A DNA stretch of 64,000 nt, from sequence record PZ452582.1, one strand, 5' to 3'. The translations under genes and the position numbers were made by a program. The notes beneath the pieces were generated by a model. That model did no database searches. It was not told the DNA's origin and saw nothing but the letters and a program-made list of their open reading frames with translations. The DNA comes from a phage. Shown in pieces: positions 3,134-60,701 of this stretch; position 1 is the stretch's first letter, and every line of letters starts with the position of its first letter.

Positions 3134-3250
3134 TAGAATTCCCCAAAACTTTTTAAAAATTTTTTCACAAAACAGTTTACATCCTTACCCTTCCATGGTA
3201 CTATACAACTATCAACTACTGATACAGAAAACAACTTGGAGAATGAAATG
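3134..3250 (+). repeat. promoter-leader cassette copy A (PeSL-like), near-identical to 46217-46316
   Basis: Shared tagaattcc...ttttcacaaaac(a/t)gtttaca...ccatggtactatacaactatcaactactgatacag...ttggagaat(g/a)aaatg. Confidence 0.7.
3176..3204 (+). promoter_or_regulatory. early sigma70-type promoter (TTTACA-17-TACTAT, A/T-rich UP region)
   Basis: GTTTAC -35 motif typical of T4 early promoters; 17 bp spacer. Confidence 0.7.
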
Positions 3251-3511
3251 GATAATTACGGCGAACTGTTCAACTTCTTTATGAAATGTGTTTCAGAAGA
3301 TTTTGGTCGTACAGTGAATGATATTAAAGTTATCGGTCCTGATCATCCGATGTTTGAAACTTACGCAGTAATGGGTAATGAAGATGGTCAGTGGTATACT
3401 GTAAAGGTTGTGATTAACATGTTCACTGCTGAAGGTTATGTTAAACTGTCTTCTAAAGTTTACCATGATAACGATGAAATCGCAGAAGAATATTTCAATA
3501 ATATGAAATAA
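3248..3511 (+). CDS. hypothetical protein (87 aa)
   Basis: Track ORF starts at TTG 3236; ATG 3248 has SD GGAG 6 nt upstream. Confidence 0.6.
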   Translation: MDNYGELFNFFMKCVSEDFGRTVNDIKVIGPDHPMFETYAVMGNEDGQWYTVKVVINMFTAEGYVKLSSKVYHDNDEIAEEYFNNMK

Positions 3512-3512
3512 G

Positions 3513-3541
3513 TTTACACAGGCTCATGATTGAGATATTAT
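3513..3541 (+). promoter_or_regulatory. early promoter (TTTACA-17-TATTAT) with 8 bp inverted repeat bracketing the -10
   Basis: GTTTAC motif; aggctcat (3520-3527) and atgagcct (3540-3547) flank the -10 hexamer. Confidence 0.6.
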
Positions 3542-3567
3542 GAGCCTATAACTTTGAGGAGAACATT

Positions 3568-3900
3568 ATGAAACGTAACTTTAGTAAAGCTTTTTGTAAT
3601 AGAAATTATTATCCTGAAGAGCTTTTTGAATCTAAGGACTTTAAAGAGTTTAACGAACGTTCTCAAAACATGCCTGTACAATGGGTGTTAGATTATGCCA
3701 AACGTATCTTTGAAGGTGTACGTTGGTTCAGTCCTGATGATGAAGCCCCATATTTTCAAAGGGCATGGTCTATAGTCAATCAAGCTTATATTGATGCTTT
3801 AGAAAATATTAATATTATGGATGATGATGCTTTGTTAATCATCGATGAGTCTATTAATAGTAGTATCGATAAATTTATTGATGAATTGGACGAAGAATAA
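3568..3900 (+). CDS. hypothetical protein (110 aa)
   Basis: ATG with SD gaggag. Confidence 0.65.
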   Translation: MKRNFSKAFCNRNYYPEELFESKDFKEFNERSQNMPVQWVLDYAKRIFEGVRWFSPDDEAPYFQRAWSIVNQAYIDALENINIMDDDALLIIDESINSSIDKFIDELDEE

Positions 3901-3901
3901 G

Positions 3902-3930
3902 TTTACAAACTCTTGGGAGTAGAGTATAAT
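3902..3930 (+). promoter_or_regulatory. early promoter (TTTACA-17-TATAAT) with inverted repeat gggagta/tactccc around the -10
   Basis: Consensus -10 and GTTTAC -35; inverted repeat 3915-3936. Confidence 0.7.
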
Positions 3931-3975
3931 ACTCCCACGGATTATAAAAACCCTTAATTAACTAAAGGAAATGCT

Positions 3976-7375: not shown

Positions 7376-7380
7376 AGTTG

Positions 7381-7409
7381 TTTACTTTCTCCTAGAATTG
7401 TGATAGTAT
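7381..7409 (+). promoter_or_regulatory. early promoter (TTTACT-17-TAGTAT)
   Basis: GTTTAC motif upstream of denV. Confidence 0.55.
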
Positions 7410-7434
7410 ATTCACAGTTACTTGGAGGGATAAA

Positions 7435-10462: not shown

Positions 10463-10465
10463 TTG

Positions 10466-10494
10466 TTTACTTTTCCTCTTGACTGTGGTATAAT
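10466..10494 (+). promoter_or_regulatory. early promoter (TTTACT-17-TATAAT)
   Basis: GTTTAC motif with consensus -10 upstream of regB. Confidence 0.75.
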
Positions 10495-10521
10495 TTTTCT
10501 ATCAGTTAAGAGGAGAATAAC

Positions 10522-14630: not shown

Positions 14631-14654
14631 AGTCTCCTTCGGGAGACTTTTTTC
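14631..14654 (+). terminator. rho-independent terminator (UUCG tetraloop)
   Basis: agtctcc-ttcg-ggagact followed by TTTTTT. Confidence 0.8.
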
Positions 14655-14664
14655 ATTTTACCGG

Positions 14665-14693
14665 TTTACTTTCCGTTTGAGCTGTGGTACTAT
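14665..14693 (+). promoter_or_regulatory. early promoter (TTTACT-17-TACTAT)
   Basis: GTTTAC motif; shares ggtactatacaactatc leader with other copies. Confidence 0.65.
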
Positions 14694-14721
14694 ACAACTA
14701 TCGGATAAAGAGGAGAACATC

Positions 14722-15473: not shown

Positions 15474-15476
15474 TGG

Positions 15477-15505
15477 TTTACAAGTTGGCAAGGTTATGGT
15501 ATAGT
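15477..15505 (+). promoter_or_regulatory. early promoter (TTTACA-17-TATAGT)
   Basis: GTTTAC motif. Confidence 0.6.
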
Positions 15506-15637
15506 AATCTTGTCAACTGTCAAGGAGAAGAGAATGAAAATTTTGTTTGTTGTGTATGTGATGATTCAATATAATTACCCAATGTTTACTTATAATCTGG
15601 TGAACAACATTATTGATATGATTCAGAGGAGTATACA

Positions 15638-18185: not shown

Positions 18186-18187
18186 TA

Positions 18188-18211
18188 GGGAGCCTTCGGG
18201 CTCCCTTTTTT
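18188..18211 (+). terminator. rho-independent terminator (UUCG tetraloop)
   Basis: gggagcc-ttcg-ggctccc plus TTTTTT. Confidence 0.8.
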
Positions 18212-18236: not shown

Positions 18237-18265
18237 TTTACAAGCATAAAGCTTTATGGTACTAT
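18237..18265 (+). promoter_or_regulatory. early promoter (TTTACA-17-TACTAT)
   Basis: GTTTAC motif; conserved ttttcacaaaac upstream and ggtactatacaactatcaa downstream. Confidence 0.65.
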
Positions 18266-18303
18266 ACAACTATCAAAACAAATGAGTAAATTGGAGATAC
18301 AAA

Positions 18304-18504
18304 ATGACTACTTTGAATAAACGTTTCGGTAAAGCTAAATCTGGTTGTGCAGCTGAACGTCGTTATGTTTTCGCTCAGTTAGAAGATGTAGAGTATCAGA
18401 TTAATCAAGTTCACATTACTGGTATCGAGCCTATGTGTGGCCTTGAAGCTCTTCGTGAAGTTCGTGACGGGTATCGTCGTGCCATCGAAGAAATGTCAAA
18501 ATAA
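18304..18504 (+). CDS. hypothetical protein (66 aa)
   Basis: SD ggag; ATG ORF. Confidence 0.5.
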   Translation: MTTLNKRFGKAKSGCAAERRYVFAQLEDVEYQINQVHITGIEPMCGLEALREVRDGYRRAIEEMSK

Positions 18505-18505
18505 G

Positions 18506-18534
18506 TATACAAACTGATAGGACTATGTTATAGT
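18506..18534 (+). promoter_or_regulatory. early promoter variant (TATACA-17-TATAGT) with inverted repeat taggacta/tagtccta around the -10
   Basis: Inverted repeat 18518-18541 flanks the -10 hexamer. Confidence 0.5.
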
Positions 18535-18561
18535 AGTCCTATCAAATCAAAGGAGAATAAA

Positions 18562-19934: not shown

Positions 19935-19937
19935 TTG

Positions 19938-19966
19938 TTTACAAGACCGTTCCTCTGTGGTACTAT
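19938..19966 (+). promoter_or_regulatory. early promoter (TTTACA-17-TACTAT)
   Basis: GTTTAC motif; same leader ggtactatacaactatcaactac. Confidence 0.6.
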
Positions 19967-19994
19967 ACAACTATCAACTACGGAGGAACACAAA

Positions 19995-32010: not shown

Positions 32011-32088
32011 CTGATATCCTCTATGCTTTAAGATAGATCTTCAAATATTATGATATAATAGATCTATGAATTGAGCTAAGAGGTGAAA

Positions 32089-32646
32089 ATGTCAGAAACT
32101 AAGCCTAAATATAATTACGTAAACAATAAAGAGCTTTTACAAGCTATTATTGATTGGAAAACAGAATTAGCAAATAATAAAGACCCAAATAAAGTAGTTC
32201 GTCAGAATGATACTATCGGATTAGCCATTATGCTTATTGCAGAAGGCTTATCTAAACGTTTCAACTTTTCAGGATACACCCAGTCTTGGAAACAAGAAAT
32301 GATTGCAGATGGTATAGAAGCTTCTATTAAGGGGCTTCACAATTTTGATGAAACGAAATATAAAAACCCGCATGCATATATAACTCAAGCTTGTTTTAAT
32401 GCATTCGTCCAGCGTATTAAAAAAGAACGTAAGGAAGTTGCAAAGAAATATAGTTACTTCGTTCACAATGTCTATGACAGTCGTGACGACGATATGGTTG
32501 CGTTAGTAGATGAAACTTTTATTCAAGACATCTATGATAAAATGACGCATTACGAAGAATCAACCTATAGAACACCGGGGGCTGAAAAGAAAAGTGTTGT
32601 AGACGATTCTCCTAGTTTGGATTTTTTATATGAGGCTAACGATTAA
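32089..32646 (+). CDS. 55: late sigma factor gp55
   Basis: 185 aa from ATG 32089 (SD aagagg); matches recalled T4 gp55 ([20 protein letters not shown]...). Confidence 0.95.
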
Positions 32647-33342: not shown

Positions 33343-33516
33343 ATGAACACCCAGACTTCTGAAATAGATTATAATAAAATTCGTTCCTCTAAAGAGGAAA
33401 TGATGAGACTCTTTAAAGCGTCTCATGATAAAGCTAAAGCAGAAGGAACTATAAAATATAAGCGCATAAAATTTAAAAGTTCTAACGAGCCTCTGTATGG
33501 CGTATTATGTGGATAG
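33343..33516 (+). CDS. hypothetical small protein (57 aa)
   Basis: ATG ORF ending in the hairpin at 33515; weak SD. Confidence 0.35.
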   Translation: MNTQTSEIDYNKIRSSKEEMMRLFKASHDKAKAEGTIKYKRIKFKSSNEPLYGVLCG

Positions 33517-33582
33517 GAGCTTCGGCTCCTATATTGCTTTATAAATTTTTGGTAAAATAAACCAAAACAAAGAGGATATTAA

Positions 33583-34785
33583 ATGAAAGTATGTATTTTT
33601 ATGGCTCGAGGTCTTGAAGGTTGTGGTGTAACTAAATTTTCTCTTGAGCAACGTGATTGGTTTATTAAGAATGGTCATGAAGTAACTTTGGTTTATGCTA
33701 AAGATAAATCATTTACTCGTAATTGCGCGCATGATTATAAATCATTTTCAATTCCGGTTTTATTGGCAAAAGAATATGATAAAACACTTAAGCTGGTAAA
33801 TGATTGTGATATTCTAATTATCAATTCAGTTCCTGCTACTTCGGTTGAAGAAGACACTATTAATAACTATAAAAAAATTATTGATAACATTAAACCTTCT
33901 GTTCGTGTTGTAGTTTATCAACATGACCATTCTTCTCTTTCTTTGCGCCGAAATTTGGGATTAGAAGAAACTGTTCGTCGAGCTGATGTTATTTTTAGCC
34001 ATTCTGATAATGGTGATTTTAATAAAGTTCTGATGAAAGAATGGTATCCTGAAACAGTTTCTCTGTTTGATGATATTGAAGAAGCACCGACAGTATATAA
34101 CTTTCAGCCTCCTATGGATATTGCGAAGGTTCGGTCAACCTACTGGAAAGATGTTTCTGAAATTAACATGAATATCAACCGTTGGATTGGTCGTACGACT
34201 ACATGGAAAGGTTTTTATCAGATGTTTGATTTTCATGAAAAACATCTTAAACCTGCAGGACTAAGTACTATTATGGAAGGTCTGGAACGTTCTCCAGCGT
34301 TCATTCCTATTAAAGAAAAAGGAATTCCATACGAGTATTATCGTCTTCATCAAGTAGACCAAATTAAAATTGCTCCTAATTTGCCAACGCAAATTCTTGA
34401 CCGTTATGTAAATAGCGAAATGCTTGAACGCATGAGTAAATCCGGTTTTGGTTATCAGCTGAGTAAGTTGGACAAAAAATATCTACAGCGTTCTTTAGAA
34501 TATACTCATCTCGAGCTTGGTGCATGCGGAACAATTCCGGTATTTTGGAAATCTACTGGCGAAAATTTAAAATTCCGTGTTGATAATACTCCTTTGACCT
34601 CGCATGATAGCGGTATCATTTGGTTTGATGAAAATGATATGGAATCAACATTTGAACGTATTAAAGAACTGTCATCTGACCGAACTCTTTATGACCGCGA
34701 ACGTGAAAAAGCTTATGAATTTTTGTATCAGCATCAAGATTCAAGCTTCTGCTTTAAAGAACAGTTTGACATTATTACAAAATAA
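33583..34785 (+). CDS. agt: DNA alpha-glucosyltransferase
   Basis: 400 aa, near-identical to recalled T4 Agt (M..CIFMARGLEGCGVTKFSLEQRDWFIKNGHEVTLVYAKDKSF...). Confidence 0.95.
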   Translation: MKVCIFMARGLEGCGVTKFSLEQRDWFIKNGHEVTLVYAKDKSFTRNCAHDYKSFSIPVLLAKEYDKTLKLVNDCDILIINSVPATSVEEDTINNYKKIIDNIKPSVRVVVYQHDHSSLSLRRNLGLEETVRRADVIFSHSDNGDFNKVLMKEWYPETVSLFDDIEEAPTVYNFQPPMDIAKVRSTYWKDVSEINMNINRWIGRTTTWKGFYQMFDFHEKHLKPAGLSTIMEGLERSPAFIPIKEKGIPYEYYRLHQVDQIKIAPNLPTQILDRYVNSEMLERMSKSGFGYQLSKLDKKYLQRSLEYTHLELGACGTIPVFWKSTGENLKFRVDNTPLTSHDSGIIWFDENDMESTFERIKELSSDRTLYDREREKAYEFLYQHQDSSFCFKEQFDIITK

Positions 34786-34824
34786 AGGGCTTCGGCCCTT
34801 TAGCTTTATACGGAGTTTGATATA

Positions 34825-38977: not shown

Positions 38978-38991
38978 TTTATAAGAGATTA

Positions 38992-39015
38992 TGCTTTAAT
39001 TTATTAGAGTATAAT
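38992..39015 (+). promoter_or_regulatory. candidate MotA-dependent middle promoter (MotA box TGCTTTA, 11 bp, TATAAT)
   Basis: tATGCTTTAa then 11 bp then TATAAT; embedded in 9 bp inverted repeat agagattat/ataatctct. Confidence 0.5.
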
Positions 39016-39032
39016 CTCTGTGGAGGAAAAAC

Positions 39033-46216: not shown

Positions 46217-46316
46217 TAGAATTCCCTAAAAAATTTTCACAAAACTGTTTACAAGACTGTTCTTCCATGGTACTATACAACTATCAACTACTGATACAGA
46301 TTTGGAGAATAAAATG
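46217..46316 (+). repeat. promoter-leader cassette copy B (PeSL-like), near-identical to 3134-3250
   Basis: Same -35/-10, leader and ttggagaat.aaaatg start context as copy A. Confidence 0.7.
46248..46276 (+). promoter_or_regulatory. early promoter (TTTACA-17-TACTAT)
   Basis: GTTTAC motif. Confidence 0.65.
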
Positions 46317-50194: not shown

Positions 50195-50531
50195 AGATGA
50201 TTTAGATTTAGATCTAGAAATTATCGATGAATCCCCCTCTTCGGAGGGGGAAGAAGAAAGAAAAGAACGTCTTTTTAATGAATCTCTTAAGATAATTAAA
50301 TCTGCCATGGAAAATGTTATCCAGGAGATTGTCATTAAACTAGAAGATGGTTCTACACATATAGTGTATGTAACTAAACTGGATTGGGTTGATGGAAAGG
50401 TTGTAATGGACTTTGCTGTTCTTGACCAAGAAAGAAAAGCTGAGTTAGCTCCTCATGTAGAAAAATGTATTACAATGCAACTACAAGATGCATTTAATAA
50501 AAGGTCAAAGAAAAAGTTTAAATTCTTTTAA
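50187..50531 (+). CDS. 40: gp40-like head assembly protein (114 aa)
   Basis: Position between uvsX and 41; acidic N-terminus; ATG 50187 overlapping uvsX end. Confidence 0.6.
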   Translation: MNKDDLDLDLEIIDESPSSEGEEERKERLFNESLKIIKSAMENVIQEIVIKLEDGSTHIVYVTKLDWVDGKVVMDFAVLDQERKAELAPHVEKCITMQLQDAFNKRSKKKFKFF

Positions 50532-50540
50532 GGAGTAAGT

Positions 50541-51968
50541 GTGGTAGAAATTATTCTTTCTCATCTTATATTTGATCAAGCTTATTTTTCAAAAGTTTGG
50601 CCATATATGGATTCAGAATATTTTGAAAGTGGTCCAGCTAAAAATACATTCAAATTAATTAAATCTCATGTCAACGAGTACCATAGCGTTCCATCTATTA
50701 ATGCGTTAAATGTTGCATTAGAAAATAGTTCATTTACTGAAACAGAATATTCTGGTGTAAAAACACTTATTTCAAAACTGGCTGATTCTCCAGAAGACCA
50801 CAGCTGGTTAGTAAAAGAAACAGAAAAATATGTTCAGCAAAGGGCGATGTTTAATGCTACGTCTAAAATAATCGAAATTCAAACTAATGCTGAGCTTCCT
50901 CCGGAAAAACGAAATAAGAAAATGCCGGATGTTGGTGCTATTCCTGACATCATGCGGCAAGCATTATCTATTTCATTTGATAGTTACGTTGGTCATGATT
51001 GGATGGATGACTATGAAGCACGTTGGCTATCTTATATGAATAAAGCTCGTAAAGTTCCATTTAAACTCAGAATTCTAAACAAAATTACTAAAGGCGGAGC
51101 TGAAACAGGAACACTGAACGTTTTAATGGCTGGCGTTAACGTTGGTAAATCATTAGGATTGTGTTCATTAGCGGCAGATTATTTACAGCTCGGACATAAT
51201 GTTCTTTACATTTCCATGGAAATGGCAGAAGAAGTCTGTGCTAAGCGTATTGACGCTAACATGCTTGATGTTTCTCTTGATGACATTGATGATGGGCATA
51301 TTTCTTACGCTGAATATAAAGGAAAAATGGAAAAATGGCGTGAGAAATCTACCCTTGGTCGTTTAATCGTTAAGCAATATCCTACTGGTGGAGCAGACGC
51401 TAATACATTTCGATCACTTTTAAATGAATTAAAGCTCAAGAAGAATTTTGTTCCAACAATCATTATTGTCGACTATCTAGGTATTTGTAAATCTTGCCGC
51501 ATTAGAGTTTATTCAGAAAATAGTTACACAACTGTTAAAGCTATCGCAGAGGAATTGCGTGCTCTGGCTGTTGAAACCGAAACTGTTCTTTGGACTGCAG
51601 CACAGGTTGGTAAACAAGCTTGGGACTCTTCCGATGTTAACATGAGCGATATTGCAGAATCTGCTGGTCTTCCAGCAACAGCTGATTTTATGCTTGCGGT
51701 CATTGAAACCGAGGAGCTAGCAGCTGCTGAACAACAACTCATTAAGCAAATCAAATCACGATATGGTGATAAGAATAAGTGGAATAAGTTTTTGATGGGT
51801 GTTCAAAAAGGAAATCAAAAATGGGTAGAAATTGAACAAGATTCTACTCCAACTGAAGTGAGTGAAGTAGCAGGTTCACAACAGATTCAGGCTGAGCAGA
51901 ATCGCTATCAAAGAAATGAATCCACTCGAGCTCAGTTAGATGCTTTGGCAAATGAATTAAAATTTTAG
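50541..51968 (+). CDS. 41: replicative DNA helicase gp41 (DnaB-like)
   Basis: GTG start with SD aaggag; Walker A GVNVGKS; 475 aa. Confidence 0.95.
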   Translation: MVEIILSHLIFDQAYFSKVWPYMDSEYFESGPAKNTFKLIKSHVNEYHSVPSINALNVALENSSFTETEYSGVKTLISKLADSPEDHSWLVKETEKYVQQRAMFNATSKIIEIQTNAELPPEKRNKKMPDVGAIPDIMRQALSISFDSYVGHDWMDDYEARWLSYMNKARKVPFKLRILNKITKGGAETGTLNVLMAGVNVGKSLGLCSLAADYLQLGHNVLYISMEMAEEVCAKRIDANMLDVSLDDIDDGHISYAEYKGKMEKWREKSTLGRLIVKQYPTGGADANTFRSLLNELKLKKNFVPTIIIVDYLGICKSCRIRVYSENSYTTVKAIAEELRALAVETETVLWTAAQVGKQAWDSSDVNMSDIAESAGLPATADFMLAVIETEELAAAEQQLIKQIKSRYGDKNKWNKFLMGVQKGNQKWVEIEQDSTPTEVSEVAGSQQIQAEQNRYQRNESTRAQLDALANELKF

Positions 51969-51997
51969 TTTACAAGCTGACAAGACTATGGTATAGT
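51969..51997 (+). promoter_or_regulatory. early promoter (TTTACA-17-TATAGT) with inverted repeat caagacta/tagtcttg
   Basis: GTTTAC motif; inverted repeat 51981-52003 around the -10. Confidence 0.6.
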
Positions 51998-52026
51998 AGT
52001 CTTGTTGGTTAAATGAGGAGATTGTT

Positions 52027-55209: not shown

Positions 55210-55254
55210 ATGTCCTCCTTTAAATTAATATTTATCACAAATTTCATAAATTTG

Positions 55255-55283
55255 TTTACTTTCTCAGCTTGTTATGGTATTAT
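55255..55283 (+). promoter_or_regulatory. early promoter (TTTACT-17-TATTAT)
   Basis: GTTTAC motif upstream of the 55309 ORF / dam operon. Confidence 0.6.
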
Positions 55284-55308
55284 AAAATAAATTGCTGAGG
55301 ATGATATA

Positions 55309-57889: not shown

Positions 57890-57895
57890 ATGCAA

Positions 57896-57918
57896 GGACT
57901 CCTTCGGGAGTCCTTTTT
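57896..57918 (+). terminator. rho-independent terminator (UUCG tetraloop)
   Basis: ggactcc-ttcg-ggagtcc plus TTTTT. Confidence 0.8.
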
Positions 57919-60010: not shown

Positions 60011-60022
60011 TTCAAAAAGTTG

Positions 60023-60051
60023 TTTACTTTCCTTTCTAACGATGATATGAT
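60023..60051 (+). promoter_or_regulatory. early promoter (TTTACT-17-TATGAT)
   Basis: GTTTAC motif. Confidence 0.55.
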
Positions 60052-60077
60052 AGCTTCTGAAGTATACGGAGGCTATC

Positions 60078-60701
60078 ATGATTATTAATCCTGCAGATGT
60101 TGAACAGTTATCTATAAAAGCTGAAAGCGTTGATTTTCAATATGATATGTATAAAAAAGTCTGTGAAAAATTTACTGACTTCGAGCAGTCTGTTCTTTGG
60201 CAATGTATGGAAGCCAAAAAGAATGAAGCTCTTCACAGACAGTTGAATAAAATCATTAAAAAGCATTTAACTAAATCGCCTTATCAATTATATCGTGGTA
60301 TATCAAAATCGACAAAAGAACTTATTAAAGATTTACAGGTTGGAGAAGTGTTTTCAACGAACAGGGTAGATTCATTTACTACTAGTTTACACACAGCGTG
60401 TTCTTTTTCTTATGCTGAATATTTCACTGAAACAATACTTCATTTAAAAACTGATAAAGCTTTTAATTATTCTGACCATATCAGCGATATTATACTTTCT
60501 TCTCCTAATACTGAGTTTAAGTATACATATGAAGATACTGATGGATTAGATTCAGAGCGTACTGATAACTTAATGATGATTGTGCATGAACAAGAATGGA
60601 TGATTCCAATTGGAAAGTATAAAATAACTTCTATTTCAAAAGAAAAATTACACGATTCATTTGGAACATTTAAAGTTTATGATATTGAGGTAATTGAATG
60701 A
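60078..60701 (+). CDS. modB: ADP-ribosyltransferase (ModB-like, 207 aa)
   Basis: R-S-EXE-like triad: LYRG, FTTS, EQEWMIP; modA/modB assignment is by length only. Confidence 0.6.
   Translation: MIINPADVEQLSIKAESVDFQYDMYKKVCEKFTDFEQSVLWQCMEAKKNEALHRQLNKIIKKHLTKSPYQLYRGISKSTKELIKDLQVGEVFSTNRVDSFTTSLHTACSFSYAEYFTETILHLKTDKAFNYSDHISDIILSSPNTEFKYTYEDTDGLDSERTDNLMMIVHEQEWMIPIGKYKITSISKEKLHDSFGTFKVYDIEVIE

Follow-up and report, generated by a model that had tools for sequence, protein, structure and literature searches.

The recurrence of short inverted repeats around the -10 hexamer of phage early promoters raises the question of whether such repeats are products of chance, elements that control initiation in the DNA, signals for recombination or structures of the RNA. 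In the window analysed here, a stretch of 64,000 nucleotides of phage DNA (sequence record PZ452582.1), repeats of this kind had been noted at four promoters, with the same layout at a MotA-type promoter, and the original prediction was of a regulated or structural promoter class rather than chance. We propose that they are probably composite units of the type named PeSL, the promoter-early stem-loop of T4-like myoviruses (Arbiol et al. 2010, PMC2839356), in which a strong sigma70-type early promoter is combined with a stem-loop that acts as read-through RNA.

Inverted repeats and early promoters in the window

Judged by sequence identity, the source DNA is a segment of a Tequatrovirus (T4-like) genome: with 663 phage records matched, the best matches of a 3-kb piece around the locus were Tequatrovirus genomes at 96-98% identity, and Tequatrovirus genomes are 93-98% identical to the window. 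The T4 map order is reversed, running from about T4 71 kb down to about 11 kb, and the early genes consequently lie on the + strand of the window. Nineteen early promoters were counted, and the T4 intergenic counterparts of window promoters are located upstream of e.8, e.7, e.6, regB, mobD.5, mobD.2, nrdC.8 and nrdC.4, as well as upstream of 55.6, imm.1, dmd, sp, mrh.2, modB and srd. At the four predicted sites the promoter follows the pattern GTTTAC (once GTATAC)-N18-TAnnnT, which in sigma70 terms is TTTACA-17-TATAAT, and TTTACA or TTTACT followed at a spacing of 17 by TATAAT, TATTAT or TATAGT is found at 3513, 3902, 15477, 51969 and other positions. Each of the four is wedged between the stop codon of the upstream gene, which adjoins the -35 (3509-3511, 3898-3900, 18502-18504 and 51965-51967), and the Shine-Dalgarno (SD) sequence and ATG of the next gene, by T4 homology e.7, e.6, nrdC.10 and dmd, respectively; the 25 nt upstream are 60-88% A+T. 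These promoters, their stem-loops and two further hairpins are as follows.

3512-3541, + strand: early promoter of the e.7 homologue, -35 GTTTAC at 3512-3517, -10 TATTAT at 3536-3541 (about T4 70359)
3520-3547, + strand: compact stem-loop, site 1; 5' arm 3520-3530, loop 3531-3536, 3' arm 3537-3547
3901-3930, + strand: early promoter of the e.6 homologue, -35 at 3901-3906, -10 TATAAT at 3925-3930
3911-3941, + strand: compact stem-loop, site 2; 5' arm 3911-3921, loop 3922-3929, 3' arm 3930-3941
18505-18534, + strand: early promoter of the nrdC.10 homologue, with GTATAC as -35; part of a cassette of a 66-aa ORF and promoter
18515-18544, + strand: compact stem-loop, site 3; arms 18515-18526 and 18533-18544, loop 18527-18532
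51968-51997, + strand: early promoter of dmd, -35 at 51968-51973, -10 TATAGT at 51992-51997
51975-52010, + strand: compact stem-loop, site 4; arms 51975-51989 and 51996-52010, loop 51990-51995
15483-15518, + strand: compact stem-loop at the mobD.2 early promoter (-35 at 15476)
38978-39024, + strand: hairpin at the middle promoter P45.2; core stem 38985-38999/39004-39018

The four repeats are present as quoted in the original prediction and are exact reverse complements: AGGCTCAT/ATGAGCCT at 3520-3527/3540-3547, GGGAGTA/TACTCCC at 3915-3921/3930-3936, TAGGACTA/TAGTCCTA at 18518-18525/18534-18541 and CAAGACTA/TAGTCTTG at 51981-51988/51997-52004. The coordinates first assigned hold for three of them, and the fourth ends at 52004 rather than at 52003. 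Once G.U pairs are allowed the stems are longer than first reported, with 11 bp including one G.U at site 1 (-15.7 kcal/mol, z -5.4; SD unpaired), 8+3 bp with a perfect core TGGGAGTA/TACTCCCA at site 2 (-14 kcal/mol, z -3.2), 12 bp of which 11 are Watson-Crick at site 3 (-17.7 kcal/mol, z -5.9) and 15 bp including G.U pairs at site 4 (-18.9 kcal/mol, z -5.6). The dmd promoter of the window is base-for-base identical in phage PST. A further hairpin of 15 bp (z -6.2), in the same register as that of dmd, is found at the mobD.2 promoter, a site absent from the original list. Likewise, the similar layout described at 38985-39019 is real and corresponds to the T4 middle promoter P45.2, where the repeat AGAGATTAT/ATAATCTCT forms a 15-bp stem with G.U pairs (-19.3 kcal/mol, z -5.9) that carries the MotA box TGCTTTA (38992-38998) in its 5' arm and the -10 TATAAT (39010-39015) in its 3' arm. 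The published start site of T4 P45.2, T4 33257 (Table 1, PMC2988021), maps exactly 7 nt past this TATAAT; the +1 positions of the early promoters were inferred by the same +7 rule, which was checked against the published start of P45.2 only.

Folding of each region from the -35 to the ATG gave two layouts. In the compact layout, found at e.7, e.6, mobD.2, nrdC.10 and dmd, the 5' arm lies within the spacer, the last two bases of the spacer make up the loop together with TATA from the -10, and the 3' arm begins at the end of the -10 and reaches about +8; at the four predicted sites the -10 hexamer is in the loop and shares the first 1-2 nt of the 3' arm. The commonest compact register is common to many genera. 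In the long-range layout, found at regB, denV, nrdC.8, modB and the promoter at 55254, the partner of the SD region is the spacer or, at modB, the -10 itself, the 3' arm being located 15-25 nt downstream on the SD sequence.

10471-10517, + strand: regB early promoter (-35 at 10465), long-range helix between spacer 10471-10488 and 10499-10517, the latter with the SD
7386-7430, + strand: denV early promoter (-35 at 7380), helix between the spacer and the sequence after the -10 with the SD GGAG (7424-7427)
19949-19989, + strand: nrdC.8 early promoter (-35 at 19937), helix between spacer 19949-19961 and 19977-19989, the latter with the SD
60046-60080, + strand: modB early promoter (-35 at 60022), helix between 60046-60059 and 60067-60080
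55261-55301, + strand: early promoter 55254, weaker helix (-12.1 kcal/mol) between spacer 55261-55268 and 55294-55301, the latter overlapping the SD

The regB helix reaches -21.6 kcal/mol and has compensatory variants in other genera, covariation is also seen at denV, the nrdC.8 helix reaches -19.4 kcal/mol, and at modB the -10 hexamer and the next bases pair with the SD-to-ATG region (-18 kcal/mol, z -4.0). Neither loop size nor helix register is fixed, as loops range from 6 to 28 nt, those of the long-range sister promoters being of 15-28 nt. At every site of both layouts the predicted +1 is located 3' of the 5' arm, and the promoter's own transcript begins within the 3' arm or past it. Its leader is essentially unstructured, with a minimum free energy (MFE) of about 0, whereas values of -15 to -22 kcal/mol were obtained for read-through transcripts. 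For pairing of the SD with bases upstream of it, the predicted probability is 0.05, 0.00 and 0.07 at the compact sites 3512, 3901 and 51968, respectively, and the SD of 18505 is unpaired in the MFE fold; at the sister sites it is 1.00 for regB, denV and nrdC.8, 0.99 for 55254 and 0.75 for modB.

A search of the window with Rfam returned 10 tRNAs only, with no family matched at the promoter hairpins, and the promoter/stem-loop features are absent from the annotation of the T4 (NC_000866, AF158101) and PST (KF208315) records. In the literature searched no genome-wide transcription start, 3'-end or structure-probing data for T4 were found.

Placement of the stems and the chance expectation

AT-rich DNA abounds in short inverted repeats, and those at the promoters could in principle be nothing else. 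In fact, local shuffles contain 34 +/- 5 exact inverted repeats with arms of at least 8 bp and loops of 4-20 nt, and the window, when nested ones are counted, contains 60. A lone 8-bp repeat is therefore unremarkable in 64 kb; a repeat search over the whole window returned mostly short AT palindromes. Placement is another matter, since the loop falls on the -10 box of an early promoter in 4 of about 44 distinct loci when about 0.2 would be expected, the target being the 19 early-promoter -10 boxes, or about 0.45% of the window. Against dinucleotide shuffles, the folding z over the compact sites and P45.2 ranges from -3.2 to -6.2.

The promoter consensus (TATGGTATAGTA) is itself partly palindromic, and for this reason a cognate versus non-cognate control was chosen, in which the -35 and spacer of one promoter are paired with the post -10 leader of another, so that position-specific composition is kept. 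The mean duplex energy was -11.7 kcal/mol for cognate and -7.8 kcal/mol for non-cognate combinations, and the observed mean was reached in none of 20000 permutations. In 9-10 of the 19 promoters the own leader beats every non-cognate leader, and a promoter-specific stem around the -10 and start site is found at about 10 of the 19 early promoters of the window. The recurrence is accordingly larger than first reported, and its departure from chance, as originally claimed, is borne out both by placement and by permutation.

The cognate test was also significant in most of 40 independent loci (about 20 kb each, around tk) from other T4-like phages; searches of IMG/VR by Dmd or RegB gave few loci, and the tk-centred search was far richer. 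Among 154 unique promoters, 19% carry an ungapped stem of at least 9 bp with a loop of 4-10 nt on the -10, with many differing arm sequences, compared with 1.6% of chimeras. Stems of at least 7 bp still arise in 8.7% of chimeras owing to the consensus. Only a small excess of fixed-register covariation was observed over the 154 promoters, at register i+j=51, because registers differ between promoters. As a negative control only, metagenomic sequences were searched for the pattern GTTTAC-N16-GGTATAGTA, the matches listed being mostly unrelated sigma70-like promoters with one T4-like contig; folds reaching -12 kcal/mol were found in 3% of 104 unrelated matches and in 6 of 11 (55%) T4-like promoters with the same pattern. 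The stems are thus missing from unrelated DNA with the same promoter pattern, and taken with the cognate/chimera comparison, the replication and the placement, this refutes a chance origin, to which we attach next to no probability.

Coding-strand pairing, upstream terminators and the rival readings

In order to understand at which level the stems act, both strands of the same regions may be compared. Sense folds contain 51 G.U pairs and antisense folds 24, and the MFE is -12.5 kcal/mol in the sense and -9.1 kcal/mol in the antisense orientation (Wilcoxon p=0.005). The excess asymmetry is cognate-specific, being reached in 1 of 20000 permutations, and is therefore not a mere consequence of G+T richness. 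It is clear in the Tequatrovirus group and small in other genera, where most stems are perfectly Watson-Crick and could also form in DNA or in antisense RNA. All five stem substitutions found in the mobD.2 and dmd hairpins among the window, T4 and locus L005 exchange G.U for A-U or G-C, or the reverse, and none of the five gives an A.C mismatch.

The arm sequences are unrelated between promoters and between genera while pairing is kept, and no operator-like consensus was found among them, which rules out a shared protein operator. In the set anchored on a CUCC/GGAG core, the helix extends inward beyond the core by 3.8 bp in cognate and by 0.87 bp in non-cognate combinations, and 11 helix variants show 3-4 Watson-Crick pair types per position. 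Likewise, orthologues of regB and denV in distant genera keep the pairing with different sequences, as in ATCTCCTGTAG/CTACAGGAGAT, TTTCTCCTCTTTAT/ATAAAGAGGAGAAA, and GGGCTAT/ATAGCCC versus GGGCCAT/ATGGCCC. MAFFT and RNAalifold returned no consensus structure for the regB leaders, because the 3' arms are not aligned by sequence. Taken together, these observations point to stems that fold in coding-strand read-through RNA, and not to a DNA structure controlling initiation.

Canonical intrinsic terminators were considered and ruled out for the promoter-overlapping stems, which are AU-rich with few G-C pairs, are followed by no U-tract (the tails read ATAACTTTG, ACGGATTAT, AAATCAAAG and AAATGAGG) and yielded no terminator pattern call on the + strand. 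Clear terminators are found elsewhere in the window, as G+C stems, often with UUCG loops, followed by T-runs. A canonical terminator is located at most 165 nt upstream of 0 of 10 strong-stem and 8 of 11 weak-stem window promoters (Fisher p=0.001), and in the related loci of 3 of 90 strong-stem and 54 of 115 weak-stem promoters, counts that include orthologues and hence inflate the p-values. Promoters thus have either a terminator before them or a stem of their own, and this complementary distribution is what is expected if the stem handles transcripts arriving from upstream.

These observations bear unequally on the alternatives. Control at the DNA level, by a cruciform or a fold on the separated strands of supercoiled DNA, or by the operator of a dimeric regulator, would suit repeats that bracket the -10 and start site, where DNA melts, as well as the perfect Watson-Crick cores of 8-11 bp and the stems outside Tequatrovirus, which are mostly perfect and fold equally on both strands; in addition, the mechanism by which T4 early promoters are shut off is described as incompletely understood (PMC3014915). 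Nevertheless, we consider such control very unlikely, since the helices are extended through G.T pairs on the coding strand only, with a cognate-specific difference between strands, the wobble-type substitutions between relatives would be mismatches in DNA, loops of 15-28 nt with the 3' arm on the SD are found in sister promoters, the unrelated arms share no common operator, and the anticorrelation with upstream terminators would be left unexplained. Furthermore, perfect arms of 7-9 bp with spacers of 8-12 nt are short for cruciform extrusion. On the opposite strand, where the -35 and the A-rich upstream element read as a T-rich sequence after the stem, the hairpins could terminate antisense transcription; indeed, the pattern scan gave the hairpin at 18514-18545 a terminator-like call on the minus strand and none on the plus strand, its tail being TTTGTATACT. 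This is the single site that passes, the other tails having 2-3 U next to the stem, and the G.U pairs become C.A mismatches on the minus strand, where folds are weaker, all of which renders antisense termination highly improbable.

A reading without any function in expression, in which the repeats are recombination signals or are simply carried along in mobile promoter cassettes that spread by homologous exchange, has more to recommend it. Three cassette indels are bounded by promoter/stem-loop units: the e.7 cassette is absent in loci L023 and L025, with the junction inside the flanking promoter units; ipIII-ipII is absent from the window, with the junction at the denV promoter; and orf66 (66 aa) with the P18505 promoter and hairpin is an insertion relative to T4. 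Exchange from one PeSL to another and mini-circles have been demonstrated in RB49/phi1, with one crossover inside the loop (PMC2839356), and long identical blocks are common to paralogous promoters. Homologous exchange, however, needs identity and not self-complementarity, and the arms differ while compensatory changes keep them paired, even in the regB and denV orthologues of distant genera, which retain the helix with new sequences; in addition, the tolerance of G.U pairs and the exclusion of canonical terminators point to a role in the transcript. Accordingly, recombination as the sole explanation appears unlikely, albeit less so than the two preceding alternatives.

The read-through reading and its relation to known systems

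Returning to the PeSL-type units proposed above, the stem-loop would be present only in RNA that began upstream and was read through the intergenic promoter, with the 5' arm supplied by the spacer and the 3' arm by the segment from the last -10 bases to near +1 to +8, and RNA started at the promoter itself would lack the 5' arm and have an unstructured leader. The compact hairpin would then mark the 3' boundary of the upstream transcription unit, where its likeliest effect is to attenuate read-through or else to stabilise the upstream mRNA at its 3' end and insulate it, thereby taking the place of the canonical terminators found at other promoters. Its molecular effect may be attenuation of elongation, protection of the 3' end of the upstream message or blocked ribosome access. 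As the units are repeated at about 50 bp, they also serve as junctions for the gain and loss of gene cassettes.

In the long-range form the spacer would pair with the downstream SD on read-through RNA, and the downstream gene would then either not be translated or depend for its translation on that of the gene before it; masking of the SD is the most natural interpretation of this layout. The probability of SD pairing is 0.57 both in cognate combinations and in chimeras, with no cognate-specific excess, because these spacers are rich in CUCC-type motifs (19 where 2.1 would be expected, an excess that unrelated promoters do not have), and an SD-masking reading therefore rests on the helix extension. 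We tentatively suggest, as a possibility that we rate somewhat below even, that the early-promoter spacer doubles as an anti-Shine-Dalgarno strand at regB, denV, nrdC.8 and modB and at their orthologues in several genera. If so, and with the same reservation, free translation could perhaps be obtained only from the transcript of the own promoter, or when coupled to translation from upstream.

With regard to the original prediction of a regulated or structural class, the structural class stands, in the form of PeSL, while regulation of the promoter or a structure in DNA is not supported, in view of the G.U asymmetry, the variable register, the lack of an operator consensus and the exclusion of terminators. 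In annotation, the repeats are to be treated as part of composite promoter/stem-loop cassettes, rather than as cruciforms or operators, and in T4-like genomes they indicate where gene cassettes are likely to be exchanged. If confirmed, the read-through reading would show how downstream genes escape cumulative over-expression in spite of dozens of very strong early promoters at close spacing.

The resemblance to a cruciform promoter lies in an inverted repeat across core promoter elements. Cruciform-regulated promoters need long perfect DNA palindromes, and a promoter regulated by a cruciform or by supercoiling was reportedly engineered by Horwitz and Loeb in 1988. In the window, however, perfect arms are of 7-11 bp with spacers of 8-12 nt and their extensions need G.T pairs, which together with the strand asymmetry and the variable geometry argues for RNA. 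Intrinsic terminators, including the UUCG-tetraloop hairpins of T4, are likewise stable hairpins that end a transcription unit and occupy the same intergenic niche, but the stems described here are AU-rich, lack a U-tract and overlap promoter elements.

The repeats belong to the published PeSL class, which is known for this phage group including T4 and PST and is ordinary for T4-like phages. As far as primary sequence can tell, every feature of that class is found in the window. A sigma70-like early promoter stands between two genes and is preceded by AT-rich DNA, a stem-loop that admits G-T pairs either falls between its -35 and -10 or overlaps the -10, and the unit closes at its 3' end with an SD and ATG. 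Such units recur many times in one genome, and cassette indels that distinguish close relatives are associated with them. Nothing essential differs. Identity of a site between the window and PST was established for the dmd promoter. Comeau, Arbiol and Krisch (2014, PMC4122927) describe PeSLs in T4 and PST at TTTACW-N17-TAYWAT promoters, with stems that are often AGNA-loop-TCNT, and middle-promoter versions (PmSL) in phage nt-1. Compared with that consensus, the hairpin at 18505 matches (AGGA/TCCT), and those at 51968 and 15476 resemble it; the -35 of the 18505 promoter is GTATAC, and TATAGT differs from TAYWAT at one position. Arbiol et al. (PMC2839356) already marked G-T pairs and the SD and ATG at the 3' end, and proposed a terminator or attenuator role for transcription from upstream. 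The sole functional test, with a lacZ reporter, was made on one GC-rich RB49 stem-loop and cannot separate termination from effects on RNA decay or translation (PMC2839356). The published label of terminator derives from that one stem-loop, and is ill-fitting for the T4-type stems described here, which have no U-tract. The exclusion of terminators, the wobble asymmetry of the coding strand and the covarying spacer-SD helices of regB, denV, nrdC.8 and modB seem not to have been stated in the papers examined.

An established precedent for the long-range form is found in the T4 genes e, soc, 49 and I-TevI, in which a late promoter inside the helix of the translation initiation region gives a translatable short transcript (Uzan and Miller 2010, PMC3014915). 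As in those genes, the 5' strand of the helix contains the promoter or directly follows it, long RNAs fold and promoter-proximal RNAs do not, and the helix holds the SD at regB, denV, nrdC.8, modB and 55254, and at modB also the AUG. In contrast, the known cases use late (or middle) promoters and delay late functions, whereas the promoter here is early, and at the four compact sites of the original prediction the SD lies outside the helix. If the spacer does act as an anti-SD strand, the principle known from e, soc, 49 and I-TevI would become a genome-wide insulation scheme for early genes, of which the compact hairpins would be a variant that insulates at the 3' end of the transcript.

Anti-Shine-Dalgarno-like motifs in early promoter spacers

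In the spacers of T4-type early promoters, anti-Shine-Dalgarno-like motifs are strongly over-represented. With the spacer defined as positions 7-24 counted from the beginning of GTTTAC, and across 155 unique early promoters from the window and the related T4-like loci L021-L060, CTCC was found in 19 spacers (2.1 expected), CCTC in 18 (2.1 expected) and TCCT in 28 (5.1 expected), counts that are inflated by orthologues. The complements of these motifs, GGAG and GAGG, displayed no over-representation in the same 155 spacers. The mrh.2 promoter exemplifies how a helix joining the spacer to the downstream Shine-Dalgarno sequence can be gained or lost among close relatives: its spacer reads ATATC in the window (57929) and TTTCC in T4 (about 15288); the T4 sequence can form a helix of -13.8 kcal/mol, whereas the window fold reaches only -5.1.

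Repeated module, terminators and further promoter-region repeats

A near-identical block, TGGTACTATACAACTATCAACTAC(TGATACAG), is located 3' of the spacer at five early promoters in the window. This five-copy block is a repeated promoter/leader module, from which cross-hits among distant T4 loci arise. Early promoters devoid of an overlapping stem sit just 3' of the confirmed UUCG terminators (14631, 18187 and 57894).

Repeated block and UUCG-tetraloop terminators in the window
3197-3225, 14686-14705, 18258-18275, 19959-19982 and 46269-46297: copies of TGGTACTATACAACTATCAACTAC(TGATACAG)
14631-14648, + strand: canonical intrinsic terminator, UUCG tetraloop, T-run confirmed
18187-18206, + strand: canonical intrinsic terminator, UUCG tetraloop, T-run confirmed
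57894-57915, + strand: canonical intrinsic terminator, UUCG tetraloop, T-run confirmed
33513-33532, + strand: putative UUCG-tetraloop terminator, from a ttcg-loop inverted repeat only
34783-34802, + strand: putative UUCG-tetraloop terminator, same basis
50232-50251, + strand: putative UUCG-tetraloop terminator, same basis

The original prediction listed inverted repeats at four early promoters and one MotA-type promoter; a further promoter-region repeat, absent from that list, is found at 32033-32067, just 5' of gene 55 (ATG at 32090), where ATAGATCT/AGATCTAT brackets a TATAAT and adjoins a MotA-box-like TATGCTTTAA (32023-32032).

Cassette gains and losses relative to T4 and its relatives

The e.7 cassette (3556-3920) is missing in two close relatives, L023 (about 794-800) and L025 (1506-1507), which retain an e.7-type promoter/hairpin fused to a remnant -10 from the e.6 promoter. 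The 5' arm of the e.7 hairpin (AGGCTNATG) carries an ambiguous base, N, in the T4 RefSeq record (NC_000866.4, about 70346). Between the nrdC.11 and nrdC.10 homologues, an insertion relative to T4, L022 and L023 (18304-18561), comprising a 66-aa ORF and a second promoter/hairpin, is common to the window and L021. The window holds a cluster of 10 tRNA genes (759-1773), compared with 8 annotated in the T4 record. At 7376-7434 denV lies directly 3' of the lysozyme gene e, the T4 internal-protein genes ipIII and ipII are missing, and the switch in T4 homology falls within the promoter unit at 7380.
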